Source: an uncultured delta proteobacterium
Lineage (GTDB): Bacteria > Desulfobacterota > Binatia > UBA9968
Assembly (NCBI GenBank): GCA_963816145.1
Contig: CAWFJP010000011.1
Location: 352,001 to 416,000, forward strand
Reading direction: 5' to 3'
DNA length: 64,000 nt
Below the pieces are notes generated by a model that had not been told where the DNA came from, did no database searches, and worked only from the letters and a program-made list of their open reading frames with translations. A program made the position numbers and the translations under genes. Below are positions 29,407-57,598 of this stretch, piece by piece; the stretch's first letter is position 1; every line of letters starts with the position of its first letter.

Positions 29407-29429
29407 TGAGTTAGGGGTTAGTGATTTAG
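29395..29429 (+). repeat. TTAGTGA/TTAGGGG short tandem repeat, left flank of four-helix-bundle gene
   Basis: gttagtgattagtgagttaggggttagtgatttag; inverted counterpart at 29804-29840. Confidence 0.75.
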
Positions 29430-29803
29430 CCGGACCGTTTGTTGAGTTGTTGGGAAATCATGCGGTTTAACATCTTTAGGATTTCTTCCAAGAGCGCCCG
29501 ACGCTCCTGAAAACCCGCACCGTCGATCAGGTCTAAATCTCGGCATTTGAGATACCAATCCAGAGTTTCAGTCGTCGAACCACGAGCTACGATCAGATAG
29601 TGCGTGTACTCTTTGCCGGTCCGCCTTCCAAAACCTTCGGCGATATTGGCACTAATCGAGCTTGCCGACCGCAAAACTTGGTTGGTGATCACGCGCCCAG
29701 TCGCACTGATGGGGAACCCACCAACATCGCGCGCAACATCAAGAAAGAGCTGATGGGCTTTTTGCCAAACTATTAAATCTTCAAAACTGCGAATCTCGCC
29801 CAC
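29426..29803 (-). CDS. Four-helix bundle protein (23S rRNA IVP/Avd-like family)
   Basis: SFEDLIVWQKAH, QVLRSASSISANIAEGFGR, IVARGSTTE family motifs. Confidence 0.92.
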   Translation of the reverse strand: MGEIRSFEDLIVWQKAHQLFLDVARDVGGFPISATGRVITNQVLRSASSISANIAEGFGRRTGKEYTHYLIVARGSTTETLDWYLKCRDLDLIDGAGFQERRALLEEILKMLNRMISQQLNKRSG

Positions 29804-33589: not shown

Positions 33590-33634
33590 CTGGACATCAT
33601 TAACGGCAAAATCATTTAACCAAAGGAGGGTCCC

Positions 33635-34066
33635 ATGAAAGTCTTAGATGTTCTGGAAATGTCGAAGGGCCGCAAAAAAGGCCAGCGCCGGATCGATCTT
33701 TTTCGCCGCGAGAATCTGGAAACCTGGATTCTGATTTTTCCCCCTGGCGACGTGCAAGTCATGCACAATCATCCGTCGGACCGGACCTATTATGTTCTGA
33801 CCGGCAAAGGTATCGTCAAAGGCCGCGACGAAACCCATGAGGTCACCCAGGGGCAGATCATCAGCATCCCAGCCCATGAGTTTTATGAAGGATCGAATCC
33901 CAATGACGAACCGATGATTCTGCTCGGCAACAGCCACAAAGCGACGGCGGAAGACGTCGCCAAAGCCGGCGGCCAAAGAAACGAAATCGACGCCAAGACC
34001 GGCAAGCGGGTAATTTTCCAGCATGGCGGCGGCCAAGACATGGGCGTGTTAGCCGACTGGAATTAA
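33635..34066 (+). CDS. Cupin domain protein
   Basis: MHNHPSDRTYYVLTGKG and GQIISIPAHEF cupin motifs. Confidence 0.85.
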   Translation: MKVLDVLEMSKGRKKGQRRIDLFRRENLETWILIFPPGDVQVMHNHPSDRTYYVLTGKGIVKGRDETHEVTQGQIISIPAHEFYEGSNPNDEPMILLGNSHKATAEDVAKAGGQRNEIDAKTGKRVIFQHGGGQDMGVLADWN

Positions 34067-34087
34067 ACTAACCCATCCACCAAGACT

Positions 34088-34121
34088 AAGCCCGGTCGAG
34101 GCAACTCGCCGGGCTTTTTTC
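34088..34121 (+). terminator. Intrinsic terminator after the cupin gene
   Basis: AAGCCCGGtCGAG-GCAA-CTCGCCGGGCTT followed by a T-tract. Confidence 0.75.
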
Positions 34122-34160
34122 TGGCCGTCAACAGTATCGCGCGAATGAGCTGGAACCAAA

Positions 34161-34318
34161 CACGAAATCCGAAGCTCGAAACTCGAAACAAATCCAAATG
34201 GAGAAAAACTCAATGTTCCAAACTAACTCCTTCGGATTCGAGGTTTTGGATTTTCCGTATTTAGAATTTATTTTGGCCTCGGTTTGTTTGGGATTTCGAC
34301 ATTCGGATTTCGGATTTT
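34161..34318. repeat. MITE-like inverted repeat with 7-bp-periodic (CGAAATC) arms, copy 1
   Basis: cgaaatccgaagctcgaaactcgaaacaaatc ... gtttgtttgggatttcgacattcggatttcggattt. Confidence 0.8.
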
Positions 34319-35037
34319 AGTCTCTCTCATCCCCTTCAGCCCCGCCTTTGCGTCCATACGCCCCTTGCAGCGTGCGAGTCTTGACGAAGAACATCATCTG
34401 CTCGTCGCTGCGAAACTTGCTCATGTCGTAGCGCTCGCGGTGAATCAATTCATCGAGGCCGCGGCGCGGCGGCGCCGCCACGGCGCTTTTGGCATAGCCG
34501 ATCGGCACCAAGTGATAAATGCGCAACGGCTCTGGGATGCCAAGCAGCGCCTTCAACATGGTTTCCATATACGGCGAATTGGCATCGCTGACATATTGCG
34601 ACGCAAGCCCTAGCGCCGTCGCCGCCAAGTGAATCAATAAGGTCGCGTTGGCCAAGCCGGTGATAAAGTGCGACTCGGCCTTCTCCAACTTGGTACGGAT
34701 CGGATAGGCTTCTTTGACCCTTGGATCACCGAGAATAACGATATGCACCGGCGCGTGGCGAAAGCCGTCGCCGGTCATCTTCGCCGTGCCGCGCACGGCC
34801 ATGTCCATCTCACGCTTCTGCTCCATCTGCTTGAGATAGTAATCGGCGATCTTGTGCCGCGTCGCGCGCTCGCGCACGATGACAAATTCCCAAGGCTGGG
34901 CGTTGCCCCCGGACGGAGCCCAGCGGGCACAATCGAGGATCGTCCGAATCGTCTCAGTCGGAAACTTCCCGGCTGCCGTCGTAGCCGCGAATACTGCGCC
35001 GCTGTTCGACTAGCGACTGCAAGTCAACGATGTTCAT
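34317..35037 (-). CDS. Nitroreductase family protein (one frameshift near 34955)
   Basis: MNIVDLQSLVEQRRSIRGY..., then in the shifted frame ARWAPSGGNAQPWEFV; LAATALGLAS motif; GGAGG RBS. Confidence 0.85.
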
Positions 35038-35281
35038 TTTCCACCTCCGAAAGTATGATTACCGAATGGTATTTTCTTTTTGCGCCGGTTCACCTTATCA
35101 AGAACTGCGGCGGTGAACATAGTTTCTTGCTCCATGCGGAGTTACCACTTCGATTTAGCCGCCCCTCCAACTCGCCGAACTCCTGAACCTTTCCCCATTA
35201 AGGCCCCCTAATCGTTCCTTGACGCCGGGCATGCACCTGGCTTAGAAGTCAGCTCAGTTCCGGGAACAGGATCGGACATTG

Positions 35282-35360
35282 CACCGCAGAGGCGCGGAGC
35301 GCGCGGAGGGAATCCGTTATCTTAAAGCAACACTCTGTGAACTCTGTGTCGCCGCGGTGA
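35282..35360. repeat. 9-bp-periodic inverted repeat (CGCAGAG/CTCTGTG type)
   Basis: caccgcagaggcgcggagcgcgcggag ... ctctgtgaactctgtgtcgccgcggtg. Confidence 0.7.
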
Positions 35361-35390
35361 AGAGTCTCTCCCCTTAATGCCGTAGCTCTT

Positions 35391-38300
35391 ATGGCGACGA
35401 CCAGCAAGAAAACGCCGAAGAAATCGCAGGCAAAGCCGCGAGCCAAGTCTGCTTCGCCGTCCGTTGCCAAGCTGAAAAACACCATCGCCGCGCAAGCGCG
35501 GGAGATCCGTGAAGGCGCGGAACAGCAGGTGGCAACGAGCGAGATCCTGCGGATGATCGCCAAGGCCCCAGGCGATCTCCAATCGGTCTTGGATACGCTG
35601 CTGGCCAACGCCGTAAAACTCTCTGGCGCAACACAAGGGCATATTCGCCAGTTTGACGGCGAGTTCCTGACGTATGTCTCGCATTTCAATGAGAGTCCCG
35701 AAGTTGTCGCCACTCTAAATCAACTGCCTCAGCGACCGCGGCCGGAGAGTATCAGCACCCGAGCTCTGACCGAGAAACACCCCGTCCACATTCTTGACGC
35801 GCAAGCGGAGCCAAATTTTCGCGGCCCTGCGGCGCAAGCTCATGCGCGCACAATGTTAGTCGCGCCGCTATTGCGGGAAGACGTTGGGATCGGAACGATC
35901 ACGATTTGGCGCGACTTCGTCGAGCCGTTTACGGATCGTCAAATCGAGCTGGTCAAAACTTTCGCCGACCAAGGCGTGATAGCCATCGAGAATGTTCGGC
36001 TCTTTAATGAACTCGAAGCGCGCAACCGTGATCTCAGCGAAGCGCTGGAGCAACAGACTGCGACAGCTGAAATTCTCGGTGTGATCGCCAGTTCTCCGAC
36101 CGATTTGAACCCGGTGCTGGAAGCCATTACCGAGCGGGCTGCGCGCGTCTGCGGCGCGGAAGACGCCGTCATGCGGCTCGTTGAAGGACATGTCATGCGC
36201 CTGGCGGCGCACTACGGATCGGTGCCCGATGTCGCAGTGGAGCGGCCGATCGATCGCCAATCGCCTCCCGGCCGCGCGGTGCTGGAGCGGGACATCGTCC
36301 ATATCGAGAATATTCAACTGGTGGCGGCGAGCGAATTCCCCGGGGTCGTCGACACTGCCAGGCGGACCGATACCGGGACGGTTCTAGCCGTGCCGTTAAT
36401 GCGAGAGGGAGTCGCCCTCGGCGTCATACATTTCCGCCCAATCGAAGTTCGTCCTTTTTCGGAAAAACAAATAGCTCTTCTCAAAAGCTTTGCCGATCAA
36501 GCCGTGATTGCCATCGAGAACGTGCGCCTGTTCCAAGAGCTGCAAGTTCGTAACCGCGACCTCACCGAAGCACTGGAGCAGCAAACCGCGACCGGCGAAG
36601 TCCTGCGGGTCATCGCTTCGTCACCGACGGAGTTGCAGCCGGTGCTCGACACACTGATCGCGAATGCGGTGAAGCTTGCCGGCGCCAAGCAGGGACATAT
36701 TCGCCAGCATGACGGTGAGTATTTTAGAGCCGTAGCGCATTACGGCGAGAGTCCAGAACTGGTGGACACCTTGCGCACCAACCCAATACGACCCGCTCCA
36801 GACACTCAGCTCGGTCGAGAATTCCTAACTCGCACACCGCTCCACATCCTCGACGCTCGGCTCGATCCTGACCGCCAAAATCTCGCAGCGCGAACCGGCG
36901 CTCGAACCCTGTTGGTCGTCCCGCTGCTACGAGAAGATAGTTCAATTGGCGGGATTACGATTTGGCGCGATGTCGTCGATCCTTTCAGCGACCGGCAGAT
37001 CGAGCTGGTCAAAACCTTCGCCGACCAGGCTGTCATCGCTATTGAGAACGTCCGCTTATTCCAAGAGCTGACTGAATCTCTCGACCAGCAAACTGCTACG
37101 AGCGAAATCCTGGGCGTGATTGCCAGCTCGCCGACGGATATACAACCGGTGCTCGATACCGTTGCAGCAAATGCCGCCCGCCTATGCGAGGCCAACGATG
37201 CGCAGATTTACCGCGTCGAAGGCGCGCTGATTCGCAAAGTCGCCATCCATGGAGATGTGCCTAGCCATCTTCCACTCGGTGAAACCAGGCCGTTAACCCG
37301 CGGTTCCGTTAGCGGCCGTGCGGTTCTCGACCGGGAAATGGTTCACTTTCATGACATGTGGGAAGCGCGCCAAGAGGACTTTCCGGACGTCCATTATCCG
37401 ACGAACGAAAGGTTGGGACTTCGGACGTTTCTTTCTATTCCGCTTCTGCGGGAAGGCGTTGCCATCGGCGTGATCACGATCCGTCGCCGGGAGGTGCAGC
37501 CGTTTACAGAAAAACAAATTGCCCTGCTCAAAACCTTCGCCGACCAAGCCGTCATCGCTATCGAAAACGTGCGGTTGTTCCAAGAACTGCAAGTTCGCAA
37601 CCGCGATCTTACCGAAGCGCTGGAGCAACAAACCGCCACCGGCGAAGTCCTGCGGGTCATCGCCAGCTCGCCGACGGACATTCAGCCCGTCCTCGATACG
37701 GTGGCCGCCAATGCAGCGTGCTTGTGTGACGCGACCAACGCGCAGATTTTCCGCGCCGATGGCGATGTCCTTCGTTTGGCCGCAAATTTCGGCGACCTCC
37801 CAGCACGGACGGAGATACTTTTGGGCTCCGGCACCGTTGGGAGCCGCGCGATCACCGAGCGGAGAACAGTTCATGTCCATGACCTTGACCAGTCCGCGGA
37901 GGAGTTCCCGGAGAGCCAGGGCGCCGGTTATCGCACCCGGCTAGCGACGCCATTACTGCGCGAAGGAGTCGTCCTTGGCGTGATCGGCATTCGCCGATTG
38001 GAAGTCCGGCCGTTTACTGACAGCCAAATCAAATTATTGGAGACCTTCGCCGCCCAGGCGGTGATCGCCATCGAGAACGTCCGGCTGTTCCAAGAACTCA
38101 AGGAATCCCTCGAACAGCAGACTGCGACGAGTGAAATTTTGGGCGTCATTGCTAGCTCGCCGACGGATATTCAGCCGGTGCTCGATGCGGTAATTGCCAA
38201 TGCGGTGAAATTGTCCGGGGCTACCAAGGGCCATGTCCGTCGGCTGGAAAATGGATTTCTCCACGTAGTCGCGCACTGTAACGAAACTCCTGAACAGATC

Positions 38301-41300
38301 GAGTATCTAAGCGCTAATCCGATTCCTGTCTCGCGGAGCGTTTCGATCCTTGAAAATCGAGTCGTCCACCGACACGACCTTCAGGAACGAAATCAAATGC
38401 TTGGTATAGACTCGTTCTTGGGAGCGCGGACCCAATTGGGTGTGCCTTTGCAGCGTGAGGGAATAGCAATTGGCAATATCATGATTTGGCGGGATGTCGT
38501 CGAGCCGTTTACCGACCGGCAAATCGATCTGGTCAAAACCTTCGCCGACCAAGCGGTCATCGCCATCGAGAACGTGCGGCTGTTCAATGAACTGCAGCAG
38601 CGCAACCGTGATCTCACTGAAGCGCTGGAGCAGCAGACGGCGACGAGCGAGATTCTGGGTGTTATTGCCAGTTCGCCGACCGATCTGACACCCGTCCTAG
38701 AAACCGTGGCGAGGAACGCGGCGCGGCTTTGTGAAGCGAAGAGCGCGCAGGTGTATCGCACCGATGGCGATTTGCTGCGGCTTGCCGCGAACTACGGGGA
38801 ACTGCACGCGGGAGAGACCAGGCCGATTGGCCGAGGCACAGTGAGCGGCCGCGCAGTTGTCGATCGCAAAACCATTCACACCGACGAACGCATCCAATAT
38901 GCAGTGGAGTTCCCCGACAGTAAGAGCGCTAGCGGCGAAACGCGTCTGTCGACGCCGTTGCTGCGCGAAGGTGTTGCCATCGGCGTAATCGGCATTCGCC
39001 GCACCGAACTGCGACCATTCACCGAAAGCCAAATCAAGCTCATCGAGACCTTTGCTAAGCAGGCCGTGATTGCGATCGAAAATGTGCGGCTGTTCAACGA
39101 ACTGAAGGAGTCACTGGAGCAGCAAACGGCGACGAGCGAAATCTTGGGCGTCATTGCCAGCTCGCCGACAGACATCCAACCGGTGCTCGACACTGTGGCT
39201 CAAAACGCGCTGCGAGTTTGTGGAGCGGAAGACGCGCTGGTCTGGCGTCTAGACGGAAGCACCCTCCGGCTTGTCGCCAACTGCGGTTCACTGCCGGCAC
39301 GACCTATTGGGTCCGAGCGCCAGGTAGACCATGGCTCCATCACCGGGCGAGCGGTGATCGAACGGCAGACCGTTCATGTGCAGGATGTCGCGGGAGCCGC
39401 AGCAGAATTCCCAAGTATGCGCGGCTTAATTGGGGCGGGTACCGCGCTTGCTACGCCACTGCTGCGGGAAGGCGTACCGATCGGTGTGATTCATATTCGC
39501 CGGATGGAAATCGGTCCGTTCTCGGACAAGCAAATATCCCTGCTTAAGACCTTCGCCGACCAGGCGGTGATCGCCATCGAAAACGTGCGCTTGTTCAAGG
39601 AACTCGGCGAGCGCAATGCGGAGCTGCGCGAGGCGCTGGAGCATCAGACGGCGACCGCCGAGGTGCTCGGTATCATCAGCCGCTCGCCGACAGACGTGCA
39701 GCCGGTCCTCGACGCCATTGTCGAGAGCGCGGCAAAGGTTTGCGGGATCGATGACGTGGTGCTGCGACTCATTGAAGGGGACGCAATGGTCGCCCGTGCG
39801 CATTTTGGTCCCCTTGCAATACCGACGACCCGCGCAGCAATCACTATGGATGAACCACGGTTTTCCTGGATGCGCGAGCATGGAACGCTGCACATTCCTG
39901 ATGTCCGCGAGCAACAGGATTTTCCGGGTCTAGGTTCGGTGATTAGTTTCCGCACGTTCTTAGCCGTGCCGCTCAAACAACAAGGGCAATTCATTGGAAC
40001 ACTTAACGCACGTCGCACCGAGGTGCGCCCCTTCACCCCGGTGCAAATCAAGCTGATGGAAACCTTCGCTGACCAAGGCGTGATCGCCATCGAGAATGTG
40101 CGGTTGTTCAAAGAATTGCAAGAACGCAACCGCGATCTCACCGAGGCGCTGGAGCAACAGACAGCGACGAGTGAGATTCTGCGCGTCGATCGCCAGCTCG
40201 CCGACGGATATGCAGCCGGTGCTGGACACAGTTATCGCCAATGCCGTGAAACTATGCGAGCGCAAAAGAAGCGGCCACGTGTGGCAGGTTGATGGAGACC
40301 GACTGCAAGTGAGTGGCATTGCGGCACGGTCGAGACTCCCGAAGAAGTTGCCGTTACTTACGAGTAGACCACTGCAATTTGGAGCACGAAGTCCATCAGC
40401 TCGTGCTTTTCGTCGAGGGCAGGCCACGTTCAATCTCAGGACGCGCAACTAGAACTGCCAGAATCGATAGCTCGGATAGTTCAAACCGGAATGCGCACGA
40501 TCTTGGGAGTACCTCTGTTGCGCGAAGGGATCCGCTATCGGAACGATCACAATTCGGCGCGATGTAGGTGCAACCGTTCACCGATCGTCAAATAGAGCTG
40601 TTGCAAACCTTCGCCGACCAAGCCGTCATCGCCATCGAGAACGTCCGCTTGTTCAAAGAACTCGACGAGCGCAATGCGGAGCTGCGCGAGGCGCTGGAGC
40701 ATCAGACGGCGACCGCCGAGGTGCTCGGCATCATCAGCCGCTCGCCGACAGACGTGCAGCCGGTCCTCGACGCCATCGTCGAGAGCGCCGCCCGGGTTTG
40801 TCGGATCGATGACGTGCTGCTGCGACTCCAACAGGGAGACACTATGACTGTGCGAGCCCATTTTGGCCCCGTAGCCGTTGGAGTCGTCGAATTTAGTATT
40901 GATACGCCACAGTATCGCTGGATGCGCGATTACGGCACGCTCCACGTTCCCGACGCCCGCGCCGCGCAGAATGATTTTCCAATGATGGGTGTCGTCGGCG
41001 GGTGGCGCAGCTTCTTGGGCGTTCCCCTTCGCCAGCAGGGAGAATTCATCGGAGTACTGAACGCACGTCGCACCGAGGTGCGCCCCTTCACCCCGGCGCA
41101 GATCAAACTGCTTGAAACCTTCGCCGACCAAGCGGTGATCGCCATCGAGAACGTGCGCCTATTCCGGGAACTCGGCGAGCGCAATGCGGAATTGCGCGAG
41201 GCCCTGGAGCATCAGACCGCAACCGCCGAGGTGCTCGGCATCATCAGCCGCTCGCCCACCGACGTCCAGCCTGTGCTTGACGCTATCGTGGAGAGCGCCG

Positions 41301-44300
41301 CCCGGGTTTGCGGGATCGATGACGTGGTGCTCCGACTCCGCGAGGGAGACATAATGGTTTCGCGGGGGCATTTTGGTCCCATACCTATGACGCGTGGGCA
41401 GATTGGCACGGATGAGCCGCATGTCCGCTGGATGCATGAACACGGTACGCTTCACATTCCCGATCTCCACGCGCAGAGCGATTTTCCAATGTTGGGGGCC
41501 ATCGCCGGCAACAACCGCGTATGGTTAGGCGTGCCCCTTCGCCAGCAGGAGGAACTCATTGGATATGTGGCCGCACGTCGGACAGAGGTGCGTCCATTCA
41601 CCCCAGCGCAGATCAAGCTGATGGAAACGTTTGCCGATCAAGCCGTGATTGCCATCGAAAACGTGCGACTGTTTCAAGAACTCACTGAATCCCTGGAGCA
41701 GCAAACCGCCACGAGTGAAATCTTGGGCGTCATCGCCAGCTCGCCGACGGATATTCAGCCGGTGCTCGATGTGGTTGCTGAAAACGCGGCGCGGCTCTGT
41801 GACGCAACGGATGCGATAATACACCGCCGCGAGGGTGAATTGGCTCGCGCCGTGGCGTTTTATGGACCACTCGGGCCGACCAGACCTGTCGGAGAAGCGT
41901 TCCGACCTTCTAGATCGGAGGTGCCTGGACGGGCGATGCTAGACGGCAAAACGGTTCACGTTCATGACATCGCGGCAGATCTCGACGCAGAGTTTCCGGA
42001 ATCCAGAGCACACCAACAGATAAGCGGTTCGCGCACGATCCTGGTTACGCCGCTGCTCCGTGAGGGCGTCGCCATCGGTGTAATCATGATTCGCCGCACC
42101 GAAGTTCGTCCGTTCCCGGACAAGCAGATCAAACTGCTTGAAACCTTCGCTAGACCAAGCCGTCATCGCCATCGAGAACGTCCGCTTGTTTAAAGAACTC
42201 GACGAGCGCAATGCGGAGTTGCGCGAGGCGCTGGAGCATCAGACGGCGACGGCCGAGGTGCTCGGCATCATCAGTCGCTCGCCGACGGACGTGCAGCCGG
42301 TCCTCGACGCCATCGTCGAGAGCGCGGCTCGGGTTTGTGGGATCGATGACGTCTTGCTGCGACTCCACGAGGGAAACGCTATGACAGTGCGGGCTCATTT
42401 TGGTCCCATACCCATGAGCCGCGTCGAGATCGGTATTGATGAGCCACAATTCCGCTGGATGCGCGAGCATGGCACGCTTCACATCCCCGACGTCACCGAG
42501 TGGAACGATTTCCAAGTCGTGACCGCCGGCGGCTGGCGCACCCACTTATCTGTTCCGCTTCATCAGCAAGGGGAATTCATTGGAGGACTGACCGCACGTC
42601 GCATCGAGGTGCGCCCGTTCACCCCGGCGCAGATCAAGTTGCTCGAGACCTTCGCCGATCAAGCCGTCATTGCCATCGAGAACGTCCGCCTGTTCCACGA
42701 GCTGGAAGCGAAAAACCGCGATCTCACCGAAGCGCTGGAGCAGCAAACGGCGACGAGTGACATTCTCGCGGTCATTAGCAGCGCGCCGACCGAATTGCAG
42801 CCGGTGTTCAATACCATCGCCGAGCATTCGGTCAAGCTATGTGGCGGCCTCTTTAGTTCTGTCTATCGCTTCGATGGCGAGCTAATTCACATGGTAGCCG
42901 ATCACAACTATCCACCGATCGCCCTGGAACGATCCCGGCAGCTCTTTCCAACCCGACCGGGCCGACATCTGTTCACGGCGCGAGCCATCCTCGATCGCGC
43001 GGTCATCCACGTCCCCGATGTCGCGCGTGATACCGAGCATGCCGACCTTAATGTCACCGAAGAGTCGCGCTTCCGAAGCGTATTGTCCGTGCCGATGCTC
43101 CGCGGAAACAACCCCATTGGCGCAATCACAGTTTGGCATGCCGACATCGGACCGTTCACACAGAAGCACGTGGCGCTGCTGCAAACCTTCGCCGACCAGG
43201 CCGTCATCGCCATTGAGAACGCGCGCTTATTCCAGGAACTGGCAGCGCGCAACCGCGATCTCTCTGAAGCGTTGGAGCAACAGACCGCCACGAGCCAGAT
43301 ACTTGGTGTCATCGCCAGTTCGCCGACCGACATTCAGCCGGTGCTGGACGTTGTCGCCGAAAACGCGGCGCGGCTATGCGAGGCAACCGACGCGGTAATT
43401 CATCGCATTGATGGCGACAAGCTCCGACCAGTGGCTAATTACGGGCCGTTGCCGGGACGGGGGGGGCGGGAATTCATTCCAATAGTCCGTGACCATATAC
43501 CCGCCCGAGCCATAATTGACCGGCGAACCCTTCACATCGATGACCTGGCAGCAGTGCCAGAGAGTGACCTTCCAGCGGGTTTCGCCAGACGTGTCGGCGT
43601 TCGGACGGTGTTGGCCACGCCGTTGCTGCGCGAGGGAATTCCCATCGGGACGATTCATATCCGCCGCATGGAGGTCCGACCTTTTACCGATAAGCAGATC
43701 AAGCTCCTTGAAACGTTTGCCGCCCAAGCGGTCATCGCCATAGAAAACGTGCGCTTGTTCCAAGAGCTCAAGGAATCGCTGGAGCAGCAAACTGCGACGA
43801 GTGAAATCTTGGGTGTTATCGCCAGTTCGCCGACTGACATCCAACCGGTGTTAGACGTAGTTGCGGAAAATGCGGCCCGGCTGTGTGATGCGTTTGACGC
43901 ACTAATACTTCGAGTCGATGGAGACACTCTCCGGGATGTTGCGAAGTATGGGTCCGTGCCCACTCCAGGCTACCCTTTGCCTGTCACTCGCGGCACGCCT
44001 GTCGGTCGTGCTGTCACCGACAGACATACGATCCACGTTCATGATCTCACGGCGGAGGTGGAAACCGAGTTCCTAGAATCCAAGACAAGACAGGAAATTA
44101 GCGGCTCTCGAACCGCACTCGCTACACCGTTGCTGCGAGAGGGGATTCCCATCGGGGCTATCGTCATCCGCCGCACGGAAGTTCGCCCCTTTTCGGATAA
44201 GCAGATTAAACTTCTTGAAACCTTCGCCGACCAGGCCGTGATCGCCATCGAAAACGTCCGGCTGTTCCAAGAACTCGAAGCGCGCACTCGCGAGCTGGCG

Positions 44301-45535
44301 CAGTCGGTGGGAGAACTAAGAGCGTTGGGTGCGGTCAGTCAAGCGGTCAGCTCGACGCTCGATCTCGAAACGGTGCTCTCGACGATCGCTTCCCACGCGG
44401 TCCAGCTTTCCGGCACCGATTGCGGCGTGATTTATGAGTACGATGAACGCGAGCAAGAATTTGACTTAAGGGCGAGCCATCGGATGGAGACGGAGGTCGT
44501 CGAGATCTTGCGCGCCGCGCCGATCCACCTGGGCGAGGGCGCCACCGGCCGGGCGGCGACCATGCGCGCGCCGGTGCAGGTGCCGGACTTTTCCAATGAG
44601 CGGGAATTTACCGGCGCGCGGGCACGGCCTCTTCTGATCCGGCTGGGTTACCGCTCACTGCTTTCGGTGCCGCTCATGCGCGAGCAACAGATCCTGGGCG
44701 CCTTGACGGTCTGGCGTCGCCAGGCTGGGGAATTTAAACCCGAAGTCATTAACCTGCTGCAAACCTTCGCCACGCAGTCAGCTCTGGCCATCCACAACGC
44801 GCGGCTGTTCCGCGAGATCCAGGAAAAAGGCCATCAACTGGAGTTGGCGAGCAAGTACAAGTCGCAGTTCCTGGCGAGCATGAGCCATGAGCTGCGCACG
44901 CCGATGAACGCCGTGTTGGGCTACACGCGCATGCTCTTGATGAACGTCTACGGCGAGCTGCCGGAGAAAGTCAGAGACGTGCATGGACGCATCGACAAAA
45001 GCGGCCGCCATCTGCTCGGCTTGATCAACGATGTGCTCGACTTCTCCAAGATCGAGGCCGGCCAGCTGGCGTTGACGATCAATCCTTACTCGATCAAAGA
45101 TGTCATCCAGGCCGTGGTCACAAGCACGCAATCGCTGGCAACCGAGAAGAATGCTCGAATTAAGAATCACCGCGCCGGCCGAGTTGCCGGCAGCGTCCGG
45201 CGATGAGCGGCGCATTTCCCAGGTGCTGTTGAACTTGGTCGGTAACGCGATCAAGTTTACCGACTCTGGCGAAGTGCGCATCGATGCGGCGGCAACGGAC
45301 GGCGCGTTGGAAGTTTCCGTCTCAGATACCGGACCGGGAATTTCGCCGGCGGATCAAGAACATATCTTCGAAGAATTCCGCCAAGCCGAAGGCTCCGTCG
45401 CGCAGCGAAAAGGCGGCACCGGCCTCGGCCTGGCGATTGCGAAAAAGATCGTCGAAATGCACGGCGGCAAGATTTGGGTCGAGAGCGAAGTCGGCAAAGG
45501 CTAGCACGTTTACGTTTACGCTACCGCTCAAATAA
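35391..45535 (+). CDS. Giant cytoplasmic sensor histidine kinase with 18 tandem GAF domains plus HisKA and HATPase (split by several frameshifts)
   Basis: 18 copies of the (T/S)FAxQ(A/G)VIAIENxRLF-type motif at ~510-550 bp spacing; H-box SHELRTPMN, N-box NLVGNAIKFT, DTGPGI, GGTGLGLAI. Breaks near 40190-40570, 42152, 45155 and 45502. Confidence 0.88.
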
Positions 45536-45536
45536 G

Positions 45537-45716
45537 AAAAATCCGAAGCACGAACACTGGAAAGCACGAAATCCGAATTTCGAAATCCGAAACAAATTCG
45601 AATGTTCAAAATTCAAAATCCCAAACGAATTTCGGTTCCGGTATTTTGGATTTTCTTCGTTTTCTGTTTTTTGGTTTCGTTTGTTTCGAATTTCGTGCTT
45701 CGGATTTCGGATTTTA
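45537..45716. repeat. MITE-like inverted repeat with 7-bp-periodic (CGAAATC) arms, copy 2
   Basis: aagcacgaaatccgaatttcgaaatccgaaacaaattcg ... gtttgtttcgaatttcgtgcttcggatttcggattt. Confidence 0.8.
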
Positions 45717-45735
45717 AATAGAATCGAGAGTTGTT

Positions 45736-46104
45736 ATGGCTGGTAAGCGAATTTTGGCGATCGAAGATCACGAGGAAAACCGGCGGTTGTTGCGCGATCT
45801 GTTGACCAGCTTTGGCTATGAGTTGATCGAAGCGGTCACGGGCGAAGAAGGTGTTACGGCGGCGGAAACGGAGCGGCCGGACCTGATTCTTATGGACATC
45901 CAACTGCCCGGCATCGACGGCTACGAAACCACCCGGCGCATCAAGGCGAACCCCGCGCTGAGCCATATCCCCATCATCGCTGTGACCTCCTACGCGCTCA
46001 GCGGTGACGACGCCAAAGCCTTCGCCGCCGGCTGCGACGCCTATGTGACCAAACCGTTCGATCCGGCGGATCTTTTGGAAAAGATCAAGGGGTATCTGGG
46101 TTAG
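45736..46104 (+). CDS. Single-domain response regulator (DivK-like)
   Basis: IED, LILMDIQLPGIDGYE, AVTSYA, YVTKP motifs. Confidence 0.93.
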   Translation: MAGKRILAIEDHEENRRLLRDLLTSFGYELIEAVTGEEGVTAAETERPDLILMDIQLPGIDGYETTRRIKANPALSHIPIIAVTSYALSGDDAKAFAAGCDAYVTKPFDPADLLEKIKGYLG

Positions 46105-46115
46105 AGGGAAAAGAT

Positions 46116-46217
46116 GTCTCTCGCAAAGGCGCAAAGACGCCAAGTTCGGAGAAAAGAGTAAATGAATTTTGATTCTGCGGTTTCCTAAACTTCGCGCCTT
46201 AGCGCCTTGGCGAGAGG
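46116..46217. repeat. 9-bp-periodic inverted repeat (CGCAAAG/CTTGGCG type)
   Basis: ctcgcaaaggcgcaaagacgccaag ... cttcgcgccttagcgccttggcgag. Confidence 0.75.
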
Positions 46218-46251
46218 TAATCCGAATCCGGCTTCTTAGTTGAGTCTGAAC

Positions 46252-47367
46252 ATGAGCGCTCCTGCGAAAATACTTGTCGTCGACGACACCGAGATGAACC
46301 GGGACATGCTGTCTACGCTGGTGGAGGCAGACGGCCACAAAGCTTCTGTTGCGGTAAATGGGCGGATCGGCTTGGAGATGCTCAAGGCGGAGCCGTTCGA
46401 TCTCGTCCTGCTCGACGTCATGATGCCGGAGATGAACGGTTATCAAGTCCTGGAACAGTTGAAGGCGGATGACAACCTACGCGCCATTCCGGTGATCGTG
46501 CTGTCCGCTCTCGACGAGATCGGCAGCGTCGTACGCTGCATCGAGCTCGGCGCCGAAGACTATTTGCCCAAACCCTTCGATCCTGTCCTGTTGCGTGCCC
46601 GCATCGGCGCCTGCTTGGAAAAAAAACGGCTGCGCGACCAGGAAGTTCAACTGCGCGGCGAATTGGCGGAGTGGAACAAGACCTTGGAGCAGCGGGTGCA
46701 AGATCAAGTCTCGCAACTTGAGCGTCTAAGCCGGCTCAAGCGCTTCTTTGCGCCGCAGCTGGCCGAACTGATCGTCAGCGGCGGCGCCGAAGATCCGCTG
46801 AAAACCCACCGGCGGGAAATCACCGTGGTCTATTTGGATCTCCGAGGCTTCACCGCGTTCGCTGAAACCGCCGAGCCCGAAGAGGTCATGGGGGTGCTGC
46901 GCGAATATCACGCCGCCATGGGACAACTGATCGCCGAGCACGAAGGCACCCTGGAGCACTTCGCCGGCGACGGCATGCTGATTTTTTTCAACGACCCGAC
47001 GCCGATCCCCAATCCCGCGGAGCAAGCCGTGCGCATGACCTTGGCGATGCGCGAGCGCGTTAAAGATTTGACGTTCAAGTGGCGCAAGCTCGGCCACGAG
47101 CTGGGTTTCGGCGTCGGCATCGCCCAGGGCTACGCCACCATCGGCGCCATCGGCTTCGAGGGCCGCTGGGAATATGGCGCCATCGGTAGCGTGCCCAACC
47201 TCGCCGCGCGGCTATGCGGCGAAGCGAAATCGGGCGAAATACTAGCGACCCAGCGCTTGGTCGGCGCGGTCGAAGATCTGGTCGAAGCCGAGAGCGTTGG
47301 CGAGTTAACTCTAAAAGGGTTTCACCGCCCAGTTGCGGCCTACAATATCCTGCGGCTCAAAGACTAG
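46252..47367 (+). CDS. Response regulator receiver fused to class III nucleotidyl cyclase
   Basis: REC: VVDD, LLDVMMP, YLPKPF. Cyclase: YLDLRGFT, FAGDG, NLAARLC, LTLKGF. Confidence 0.92.
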   Translation: MSAPAKILVVDDTEMNRDMLSTLVEADGHKASVAVNGRIGLEMLKAEPFDLVLLDVMMPEMNGYQVLEQLKADDNLRAIPVIVLSALDEIGSVVRCIELGAEDYLPKPFDPVLLRARIGACLEKKRLRDQEVQLRGELAEWNKTLEQRVQDQVSQLERLSRLKRFFAPQLAELIVSGGAEDPLKTHRREITVVYLDLRGFTAFAETAEPEEVMGVLREYHAAMGQLIAEHEGTLEHFAGDGMLIFFNDPTPIPNPAEQAVRMTLAMRERVKDLTFKWRKLGHELGFGVGIAQGYATIGAIGFEGRWEYGAIGSVPNLAARLCGEAKSGEILATQRLVGAVEDLVEAESVGELTLKGFHRPVAAYNILRLKD

Positions 47368-47473: not shown

Positions 47474-50400
47474 ATGAGCGGAAAATCTATTCCTACCGAG
47501 TTGTCGCCGGTGCCCTCGCTGGCGGCTCGGCTGTTGTTCTTCCTCAATTTCAAGCGGCTCAAAGTCTGGCTTTGGTGGCTCGCCGTGATTTTGATCGTGG
47601 TCGCGGCGATATTCCTTGAGATCCAGACTTCACTCCTGCAATCTTGGTTTTTCACCAGCACCAACGAGCGGCTTTTTTACACCCTAAAAAACGGCCCGAG
47701 CCGGGAGATCATTTTCCCTCGTGCTGCGCCCTTCGACGAGCGGCGCGGCTATTCCAAGCTGCCCGCCTTTCAAAACCGCCTGGAATCCCAGGGCTATCGG
47801 GTGACCAAGCAAATGCGCCAGTCGGAAACCATGCTAACGCTCTTGGATCGCGGCATCTCGCCGCCCTATCTGGAACGGCCGGATGCCGGCTTGGAAATCA
47901 GCGGCGCCGACGGCGTGCAACTTTTTCGCTACGCCCAGGGCGAGTTTCTCTTCGGCAGGATCGACGACATCCCGCCGCTCCTGGTCAAGACCCTTTTATT
48001 CCTGGAGAACCGCGACCTAGACCGGCCGGTAACGTCTTGGCAAAATCCGGTGATAGAGTGGGACCGGACGCTCAAAGCGGGGCTTTATTATCTAGGGTCC
48101 ATATTCCAGCTGCCGGTACCGGTGCAAGGCGGCAGCACGCTGGCGGTTCAGCTGGAAAAATTTCGCCATTCGCCCCACGGCCGCACCGGCGATCCCTTGG
48201 AGAAACTGCGCCAGATCGTCGGCGCCAGTTTGAAAGCCTATCAGGCGGGCCCCAACACCCGTGCCTGGCGTGAGCGCATCGTCGTCGATTATTTGAATAC
48301 CGTGCCCCTGGCCGCCGCGCCATCCTATGGCGAGATTCACGGCCTGGGCGAAGGCCTTTACGCCTGGTTTGGCATTCGCTTGAGCGATGCGGTCAAGGAT
48401 TTGCGGTCCGCCAAAGCGACACCTGCCAAGGTGCGCGCCTTCAAACATGCCCTCGCCCTATTGATTTCAGTCCGCGCGCCGTCGGTGTTTCTGGTCGACG
48501 AGCGGTCATCGCTGGAAGAAAAGGTCAACCAGTTTACCCGCCTGATGGCCCGCGCCGGGGTGATCGACTGGGAGTTCGCCGCCCTTCTGCAAGAAACGCC
48601 GATCAAGTTTCTGCCCACTGCGCCGCTGCCGCCGCAGCCGTCGTCAAACAAGAACAAAGCCGCCAACGCCATCCGCGTCAGCATGATGGAGGCGCTTGGC
48701 GTGAACAATCTTTACGACCTCAATCGTTTGCATCTGCAAGTCGACAGCACCATCGATGTGCCACTGCAAAAGCGGGTATCGGATTTCTTCAATCGCTTGG
48801 CTCAGCGCGACGTCATCAAAGCCTATGGCCTCGACGGCGAGCGTTTGCTCGAGGCCGACGACCCATCGAAGATGATCTATTCATTCCTGCTCGTGGAGGC
48901 CACGCCCAACGGCAATTTGGTGCGCGTGCAGGCGGACAATTTGACGGCGTCCTTGGATTTCAACAAAAGTGTCAAGCTGGAGCTCGGCAGCACCGCCAAG
49001 CTGCGGACTCTGACGCATTATTTAGAATTGGTCACCGAGCTGCACAAAGAGCTCTCGGGCCTGGACCCCAAGCAGCTGCAAGAACGCGGCAACGCGGGCC
49101 GCGATCCCTTGACCAAATGGGCGGCGGAAACCCTGCGCGCAGACCCGGCCATGGCGCTGCAGCCGTTCCTCGACAAAGCCATGGAGCGGAAATATTCAGG
49201 CAGCCCCTATGAAGCTTTTTTCACTGGCGGCGGATTGCATCATTTTGAGAATTTCGACAAACAGGAAAATGAACGCATCTACGAAGTGCGCGATGCCCTG
49301 CGCAACTCCAACAATTTGTCGTTCATTCGTATCATGCGCGATCTGGCCAGCTACCATCGCGCCCGCCTCGATTACGACGCCAACGATGTGCTCGATAATC
49401 CCGACAACTCGACACGCCGGCAGATGCTTCAGGAGATCGCCGACGAAGAATCCCGCGTCGCGTTGCGCCGCGCCTATAGGATCTACGCCAAGCAAACGCC
49501 CGACGAGATCGTCAAACGGCTGATCGGCAGCAAACGTAATATCGAGCGCCGCCTGGCCATCCTGTTTTTCGCCTGGAGAATCGGCAGCGACGAGGAAGCA
49601 TTAACCGCCTGGCTGGAAAAGCATGAAGCCAAGAGCGCCGAGACCGATGTCGCGAAACTGTTTCGCGCCTACAATAATCCACGCTCTAACACTGGTCGAC
49701 TACGCCTATCTGCTCAACATGCACCCGCTCGAACTCTGGTGTGCCAGCGAGTATCGCAAGAACGGCGAGCTGTCTTGGGAAGAACTGTATAATAAAGGCG
49801 TTCAGGCGCGGCACCTGGGCTCGGCCTGGCTGCTCAACCCACGCAACCACCGCGCCCAAGAGAATCGACTGCGCATTCGCATTGAAAAAGACGCCTTCGC
49901 GCGCATGACGCCCTACTGGCAGCGGCTCGGCTTCCCATTTAAAACTTTGGTGCCGACCTATGCCACCGCCATCGGCAGTTCGTCGGACCGGCCGACGGCG
50001 CTAGCCGAGCTGGTGGGAATTCTCGTCAACGACGGCGTACGCCGGCCGGCGACGACATTAACCAAGATTCATTTCGCCGGCAAAACACCCTACGAGACGT
50101 CTGCTCGAACGGCACCAGGAAAAGGGCGAACCGGTGCTCGCCCCCGAGGTCGCCCGCACCATGCGCAAAGCCATGGCCGCGGTCGTCGAGCAGGGGACCG
50201 CGCGCAGACTCAACGGCGTGTTCAAACTCGCCGATGGCACGGTGCTCACCGTCGGCGGCAAGACCGGCTCCGGCGACAATCGTTTTGAGACTTTCAACCG
50301 CAGCGGCGGCGTGATCAGCTCGCGCGCCACCAACCGCACGGCGACCTTCGTCTTTTACATCGGCGAGCGTTACTACGGCGTCATCACCGCCTTCGTCCAA

Positions 50401-50598
50401 GGACAGGAGGCCGGCAAATATCATTTTACCAGCAGTCTTCCGGTCACCTTGCTCAAACTGCTGGCGCCCTCGATCACCGCCAAGCTCGACAACAAGAAAC
50501 TCGACGAAGTACCCCCGCCAGTGCGAGAAACCCCAGCCGAGGTCACCAACCAAACCAGCAGCATCCCGCGCAACAAACGCCAAACCGTCGCGAATTAA
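47474..50598 (+). CDS. Large transglycosylase/penicillin-binding protein (frameshifts near 49686 and 50100-50130)
   Basis: TM anchor; GT51 motifs LFLENR and QGGSTLAVQLEK; transpeptidase-like GSTAK and GGKTGSG across three consecutive ORFs. Confidence 0.8.
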
Positions 50599-51852: not shown

Positions 51853-51913
51853 GCCAGACAAACCTTGAAGGATATTCTAGCGAGTACCGAGCGCAAATAA
51901 CCGGTTGCGATCA

Positions 51914-57598
<5,685 letters not shown>

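Follow-up and report, generated by a model that had tools for sequence, protein, structure and literature searches.

How does a sensor protein come to carry 18 units of one domain fold in an order that its relatives do not share? The question is raised by a giant poly-GAF histidine kinase gene (35391..45535, plus strand, about 3,380 codons, with the end point near 45535 read by eye across the last indel) in DNA from an uncultured delta proteobacterium. The whole stretch analysed, 64,000 nucleotides (nt) long, is called the window below. A first-pass annotation had proposed that recombination at conserved linkers shuffles sensory cassettes while coiled-coil register is kept. Sequence patterns in the window and its relatives suggest, with a probability of about 0.7, that ordinary homologous recombination, acting at junctions whose protein sequence is conserved, has swapped single GAF cassettes among arrays, among loci and across species. 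Varied unit order, one-cassette tracts that end at junctions and linkers that step by heptads support that proposal. Its premise that junction DNA is generally over-similar for its protein is not supported.

The array was confirmed as 18 GAF units spanning 35517-44810, for which 18 junction anchors were found. Units were compared within a sample of 467 from 40 stretches of relatives and six loci of the source genome itself; 269 of these had no stop or frame change and 266 passed a score filter. In a core tree of the 266 intact units, class B forms a clade with support 1.0 and class A one with 0.99. The class of unit 15 (class D) and the terminal class are also clades, and class C is not. The classes of broken units come from tblastn; applied to intact units, it gave the same class as the clustering in 263 of 264 cases. 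The original assignment of units 9, 11, 12 and 14 to class B describes a true clade. That of units 1, 3, 6 and 10 to class A also holds, with units 1, 3 and 6 inside the clade and unit 10 nearest to it. Units 15 and 18, singletons in the window, fall in separate clades. The members listed for class C stand as assigned, but they do not form one lineage: the eight in the window represent seven subtypes, units 5 and 7 being the one pair of the same subtype.

The order of these classes was compared between species. Class strings differ in 39 of 39 arrays of at least five units, some of them cut by contig ends. Sequence divergence was gauged against uvrA, a double-length open reading frame (ORF) of 1,897 residues (window 51905-57598, plus strand) that we take to be UvrA-like from its motifs. 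Two genomes share both flanks of the locus (uvrA 87% identical), G003 with an array of 14 units and G019 with two genes of 7 and 12 units. Among non-B units, only unit 16 is kept in these syntenic orthologues at species-level identity or better (92-94%, with a second match of 85% in one of them), and units 2, 17 and 18 are 72-79% identical to theirs. Short-read loci whose kinases are 84-90% alike carry different upstream orders. Slow birth and death would explain such arrays by old tandem duplications, purifying selection on subtypes and differential loss, with little exchange. Block duplication, however, predicts common neighbours. In 46 pairs of nearest cores (core identity of at least 0.80; 204 intact units, 12 genomes) a neighbour was alike in 1 of 59 comparisons, and at a core identity of 0.75 in 2 of 200.

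Tracts of single cassettes bear on the same choice. Sliding identity for units 8, 16 and 18 climbs and drops at junctions. The core of unit 8 is 91% identical to unit 9 of a frame-intact array in another genome (G014:C12), where the neighbours are unrelated and uvrA is 79% identical. Between these two units 55 of 65 four-fold sites agree, against 64% for uvrA, which argues against slow birth and death. The core of unit 18 is 90% identical to one in G023:C421, though the kinases are only about 65% alike, and unit 16 is 87% identical to a unit of another array in its own genome. Units 6 and 7 match adjacent units of G019:C8 at 86% and 99%. This array belongs to another species and lacks the flanks of the present locus; its assembly is error-rich, and the 99% match of unit 7 was not relied on. 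Pair tests left out the error-rich genomes G003, G019, G027, G029 and G018. B cores of more closely related genomes are no more alike at synonymous sites (Spearman -0.21, 563 pairs), whereas terminal units are (Spearman +0.38, 157 pairs). Of 5,540 inter-genome pairs, 18 lie above the uvrA level at p<0.001, where 5.5 would be expected.

Several points weigh against exchange. Both syntenic orthologues come from error-rich assemblies, and the unit 8 result (p = 2e-4) would by itself fail a multiple-test correction. At p<0.01 there are 42 pairs against 55 expected, so the cross-species excess is confined to the far tail; part of it is owed to one B unit of G041, and the pairs are not independent. 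A test of the pairwise homoplasy index type on 108 synonymous sites of 37 B units, which has little power, gave no signal (p 0.91-0.96). The linkage measure r2 is about 0.03 at every distance, as either a star-like history or free recombination would give, and no concerted evolution was found within arrays. Old duplications and losses with conserved subtypes retained could mimic part of the exchange pattern. Slow birth and death gains from the silent homoplasy test, from the recurrence of C2-type units one or two places ahead of the terminal unit in kinase-close loci, and from the divergence of most same-class pairs beyond that of uvrA (median four-fold identity 0.30-0.51 versus about 0.58). 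Set against the scarcity of common neighbours, the unit 8 tract and the near lack of common cassettes at the syntenic locus of species with 87% uvrA identity, it appears unlikely, and we favour cassette exchange.

If cassettes are exchanged, is the junction DNA itself specialised for it? A dedicated system of programmed diversification would keep junction DNA near-identical as recombination sites, or employ a specific recombinase or reverse transcriptase, and make variants within a clone. The first-pass annotation had described about 140 nt of nearly identical DNA at about 39600, 40658, 41168 and 42195, and at 36533 versus 37581. Aligned in register, 40658 and 42195 agree at 134 of 140 bases, 39600 and 40658 at 132, and 39600 and 42195 at 129, and the description fits these three (92-96%). 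It does not fit the three pairs involving 41168 (unit 12), with only 119-123 identical bases of 140, or 36533/37581, with 113 of 140; these are ordinary. In the last pair 52 of 53 residues agree, yet the same codon is used at only 32 of 52 positions, which is background at synonymous sites.

The junctions of units 9, 11 and 14 are a real outlier in this assembly. The N-terminal junction (N-junction) of unit 9 matches that of unit 11 over a 111-nt stretch with one mismatch. When 37 B units of better assemblies are compared in all 666 pairs, units 9 and 11 differ least at synonymous sites of the junction (0.14) and units 11 and 14 next least (0.18), with units 9 and 14 in fifth place; the median is 0.51. 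The cores of 9/11 and 11/14 are ordinary, with synonymous differences of 0.69 and 0.43. Such closeness between junctions of diverged cores is what a programmed system would leave, as are eight minority codons that units 9 and 11 share in the junction.

The family as a whole argues otherwise. Across 52 short-read B units, the N-junction, the core and the C-terminal junction show synonymous differences of 0.55, 0.57 and 0.63 and ratios of non-synonymous to synonymous change (dN/dS, from Nei-Gojobori counts) of 0.05, 0.32 and 0.04, respectively. B units with apparent compensated frameshifts or another linker were left out, five in one set and one in another. Synonymous divergence is equal in junction and core, and junction conservation therefore reflects protein constraint rather than a special DNA site. 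Junction identity is thus what amino-acid constraint predicts for the family, and exceeds it for the 9/11/14 trio. Among short-read B units, junctions of the same locus are no more alike than those of different loci (0.832 versus 0.829, p 0.54). None of 66 same-locus short-read pairs reaches 92%, although short-read assemblers break at near-identical repeats and may hide cases. No recombinase was found among 69 flanking ORFs of other arrays in the genome or 14 window proteins, an unlinked enzyme being possible. Programmed diversification is very improbable on these grounds, and ordinary homologous recombination remains our preferred route for the exchange.

Two more specific systems were considered and rejected. 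For a diversity-generating retroelement (DGR), the nearby reverse transcriptase is of the group II intron type and adenine bias is not strong (0.22 versus 0.15-0.19); a genome-wide search for a DGR reverse transcriptase was not made. This reverse transcriptase is truncated and lies between a receiver and a sigma-54 regulator, downstream of a 17-unit array (L237:3231-4298, minus strand). For a site-specific cassette system of the integron or shufflon type, no recombinase was found in the scanned flanking ORFs, and junction synonymous sites vary freely.

Could the mosaic instead have been made in the computer? Long-read assembly and polishing in a complex metagenome might have blended reads of paralogues and relatives and so produced much of the mosaic and near-identity. 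Frame breaks in the kinase gene fall at about 40187, repeatedly within unit 10, and near 42151, 45150 and 45502. The extra bases at 40187 and at 42151/2 are absent from contigs of four of four public runs, which are 90% alike and may be paralogues or relatives. The nitroreductase gene next door likewise has indels. With short- or long-read origin judged from contig counts, seven genomes of at least 100 contigs have 81 of their 83 units intact, compared with 148 of 330 for few-contig genomes. Because the run contigs lack the extra bases, units are mostly intact in many-contig genomes and a neighbouring gene has indels, the kinase frameshifts are probably assembly errors.

Repeat units also appear to have been altered in sequence. 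In the genomes with the most broken frames, B cores agree at 90-92% with the majority sequence of short-read B units from other species, to which short-read B units themselves are less close (0.69-0.81 by genome). Across nine few-contig genomes, closeness of the B cores to this majority runs against the share of intact units (Spearman -0.93). G003 and G019 have more than 80% of their array units broken but intact cyclase and uvrA pieces. We infer a drift of repeat units toward the majority sequence through polishing with mis-mapped reads, which can mimic gene conversion. Drift toward other species' majority affects the arrays of the five genomes left out of the pair tests (L021, L022, L028, L029, L034-L040), and identities of 94-97% among their B units were discarded as probable artefact.

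The trio of units 9, 11 and 14 lies in the frame-broken zone, and its junctions agree at 92-95% with the error-rich set's majority, as an artefact would have it. Against this, the codons common to junctions 9 and 11 are in the minority both among short-read units and in the error-rich set. Exact pieces of 47-57 nt of the trio junctions occur in public contigs, and one extends 64 nt from the unit 11 junction into the core. For the trio we lean toward recent local conversion, with a polishing artefact only somewhat less probable. For the mosaic at large, an artefact is a poor explanation that we give little credence: order diversity, heptads and ordering rules persist in frame-intact and short-read loci, and public-run contigs match the cores of units 6-9, 11-13 and 15 at 97-100%. 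These contigs end at junctions and so carry no order information.

Shuffling is constrained, first by linker length. Of 200 intact non-terminal units, 199 have a linker of 9 (87 units), 16 (109 units) or 23 residues (3 units). In distant relatives, 151 of 151 measurable linkers in 35 loci fit these lengths, and 30 others, many of them ahead of the terminal unit, were unmeasurable. Two lengths seven residues apart had been noticed in the window at the outset. The short one precedes units 4, 6, 8, 13 and 17, and relatives add a third, 14 residues above the short. A second constraint is the choice of neighbour. A long linker precedes B in 51 of 52 cases, and B follows B in 4 of 114 transitions compared with 108 of 257 after other classes. 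Of non-B units that follow B, 40 of 46 carry the short linker, versus 46 of 102 elsewhere. The terminal class is last, next to the kinase, in 27 of 27 intact cases. The significance of these counts is inflated by related arrays. The usual building block is a pair of long linker, B, short linker and C. Units 11-12 of the window are one of the four B-B adjacencies, and the window run B-A-B-B-C-B-D is atypical.

Structure prediction bears on the junctions as well. A model of units 14-15 from a 99-row alignment (predicted local distance difference test score, pLDDT, 93) contains two GAF folds and an unbroken 53-residue helix, 145-197, over the junction. Every junction is accordingly predicted from modelling to be one continuous helix running from one GAF domain into the next. 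Class B strands have fixed residues in alternation with highly variable ones (55, 66, 118, 120, 132, 134), and the lid loop, 109-115, is variable. In a GAF domain, strand and lid-loop positions of this kind would line the ligand pocket. From the alternating pattern, rather than from measurement on coordinates, the variable B residues are predicted to face the pocket. Non-synonymous rates at variable sites reach 0.40-0.58, against a synonymous mean of 0.40, and relaxed and positive selection on these positions are indistinguishable from such rates.

Cassette exchange could then proceed as follows. The junction helix would be held near-invariant for signalling, and DNA homology would recur along the array. 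Because its protein is nearly invariant, the B junction is about 83-86% alike in DNA, and its 250 nt would offer homology every 500 nt. Crossovers or conversions within and between arrays, including with DNA from other species, would exchange whole domains in frame. Products would last only if the linker shifted by whole heptads, preserving the register of a dimeric coiled coil; the dimer is assumed from the kinase class and by analogy with published sensor kinases (PMC6798134). Ligand binding along the rod would act through the helical spine on the kinase, and from there on the receiver and receiver-cyclase.

The gene encodes a short basic N-terminal leader, the 18 GAF units, HisKA and HATPase_c, with the reading spread over three frames. 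Units measure 495-545 nt, and Pfam GAF matched 17 of the 18; the exception, indel-broken unit 10, was placed by tblastn. All lie on the plus strand. Unit 1 (class A, 35517..36005) is followed by unit 2 (a C subtype with a long linker, 36006..36533, core 79% identical to unit 2 of G029:C11), unit 3 (class A, long linker, 36534..37061) and units 4 and 5 (two distinct C subtypes with a short and a long linker, 37062..38090). Units 6 (class A, short linker) and 7 (C subtype, long linker) occupy 38091..39095, unit 8 (C subtype, short linker) 39096..39596 and unit 9 (class B) 39597..40109. Then come the class A-like unit 10 with several indels (40110..40654), units 11 and 12 (class B, 40655..41674), unit 13 (C subtype, short linker, indel at about 42151; 41675..42191) and units 14 and 15 (classes B and D, 42192..43232). 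The array closes with units 16 (C2 subtype) and 17 (short linker) at 43233..44267 and unit 18, of the terminal class, at 44268..44810.

The output domains (44859..45501, plus strand, Pfam) are HisKA at 44859-45062 (PF00512, E 8.5e-21) and then HATPase_c at 45199-45501 (PF02518, E 3e-31), with the indel near 45150 between them. Their order and the GAF repeats identify a class I sensor histidine kinase with GAF inputs at the sequence level. A reading by eye showed no membrane segment, and the protein is likely cytoplasmic. Downstream on the plus strand, a domain scan found a single-domain response regulator (45736..46104) and a receiver fused to a class III adenylate/guanylate cyclase (46240..47367). 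The receiver-cyclase is the likely output of the kinase, and a cyclase match comes after the array at 12 loci in other genomes. Autokinase activity and phosphotransfer to the adjoining receivers are predicted from gene order.

Poly-GAF kinases of this kind make up a multi-copy family of soil bacteria, and the source genome carries five arrays of 10-18 units plus two with 2 units each. Among the best 80 of 530 matches, the closest named ones are mostly titled uncultured delta proteobacterium or Candidatus Binatia, with Rokubacteria, Methylomirabilota and Alphaproteobacteria among the remoter ones at 45-51%. In several relatives, matches to the upstream flank (window 33600-35200) lie 5-9 kb from uvrA (window 51900 onward), for example in G004:C9, G029:C14, G018:C14 and G025:C10. 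No array was found in the two stretches of this kind that were examined, and the kinase block thus represents a gain or loss at this site. Poly-GAF kinase genes frequently stand in tandem pairs or triples (G019:C9, G018:C11, G027:C36, G000:C1, L159, L169, L188), and runs of PF04392 substrate-binding protein genes lie downstream of two of the other GAF kinases (L240, L241). Intergenic fold-back repeats at about 34160-34320, 35270-35365, 45536-45720 and 46115-46215 match some 17, 6, 21 and 70 sites in the genome, respectively, and border the kinase, receiver and cyclase genes. The window also contains a transglycosylase-like gene apparently cut into three ORFs by indels (47474-50598, plus strand) and a four-helix-bundle gene of the 23S rRNA intervening-sequence family (29426-29803, minus strand), with seven tblastn matches in the genome.

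How does this kinase compare with known tandem sensors? The top Foldseek match is CyaB2, a cyanobacterial adenylyl cyclase (PDB 1ykd; E 9e-14, 15% identity), which resembles it in carrying two GAF folds on one long helix. The mammalian phosphodiesterases PDE2A/5A/6 likewise have two GAF folds joined by one long helix. These proteins have two GAF domains, whereas the window kinase has 18 and a kinase output, and their cyclic-nucleotide binding motif is not apparent by eye in the window units. Cassette exchange is not known for CyaB2 or PDE2A/5A/6. The only sequence-level PDB match (E 1e-4) is GAF-A of the GAF-containing kinase DevS/DosS from Mycobacterium tuberculosis; it is limited to the C-terminal half of one unit, and the B lid loop has no conserved histidine. 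A bilin-binding cysteine is not conserved in B core columns 50-142 and was not seen by eye in other classes, unlike in cyanobacteriochromes. Heptad-periodic inter-GAF linkers are common to cyanobacteriochrome tandem-GAF receptors and this family (199 of 200 here).

Multi-GAF cyanobacteriochrome and tandem-PAS sensor kinases have regular tandem domains with a seven-residue linker periodicity, read there as a signal-integrating coiled coil (PMC6798134); the present family differs from them in its longer arrays and class-based ordering rules. Lineage-expanded paralogous histidine kinases gain new N-terminal sensor combinations by a mechanism that Alm et al. call unclear (PMC1630713). Here, in contrast, all shuffled units have the same fold and are regularly arrayed, the breakpoints lie in a helix that can be defined, and cassettes appear to pass between species. 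In fungal NOD-like receptors (NLRs) with high internal conservation (HIC) of repeats, units are exchanged between paralogous receptor genes and trees do not follow species, according to one report (PMC13449251). Those repeats are described there as near-identical throughout, whereas in the kinase family conservation is confined to the scaffold and to its protein sequence, and every unit is a complete domain. Greater likeness of repeats within a gene, a trait of the fungal HIC receptors, is not seen here (again 0.832 versus 0.829, p 0.54), where near-identical copies may be under-sampled. Repeat exchange between paralogues and species, another of their traits, seems to be shared, judging from sequence patterns.

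A bolder reading is tentative and, in our view, rather doubtful. The family could form an immune-like receptor repertoire, with a genus-wide, cross-species pool of GAF cassettes that have invariant frameworks and freely varying pockets, recombination of these into giant kinases so rapid that strains differ, and a framework selected partly for swappability. Its assembly rules, just as tentative in this role, would be the long linker-B-short linker-C pairs, the heptad steps and the fixed terminal unit.

A literature search in which subscription journals were mostly outside coverage found no publication on this poly-GAF kinase family. Heptad-spaced tandem sensor domains, kinase domain shuffling and fungal NLR repeat exchange are already published (PMC6798134, PMC1630713, PMC13449251). 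New here are the evidence for single-cassette and cross-species exchange, the joining rules and the demotion of near-identical junctions. The arrays also carry a warning, in that repeats in error-rich long-read metagenome assemblies drift toward the majority and can pass for gene conversion. Kinase domain shuffling is known and its mechanism was left open (PMC1630713); this family supplies a defined breakpoint helix and explicit joining rules. Its hundreds of natural, plug-compatible sensor domains make signal integration along a many-domain coiled coil testable, and as parts they could aid biosensor design.

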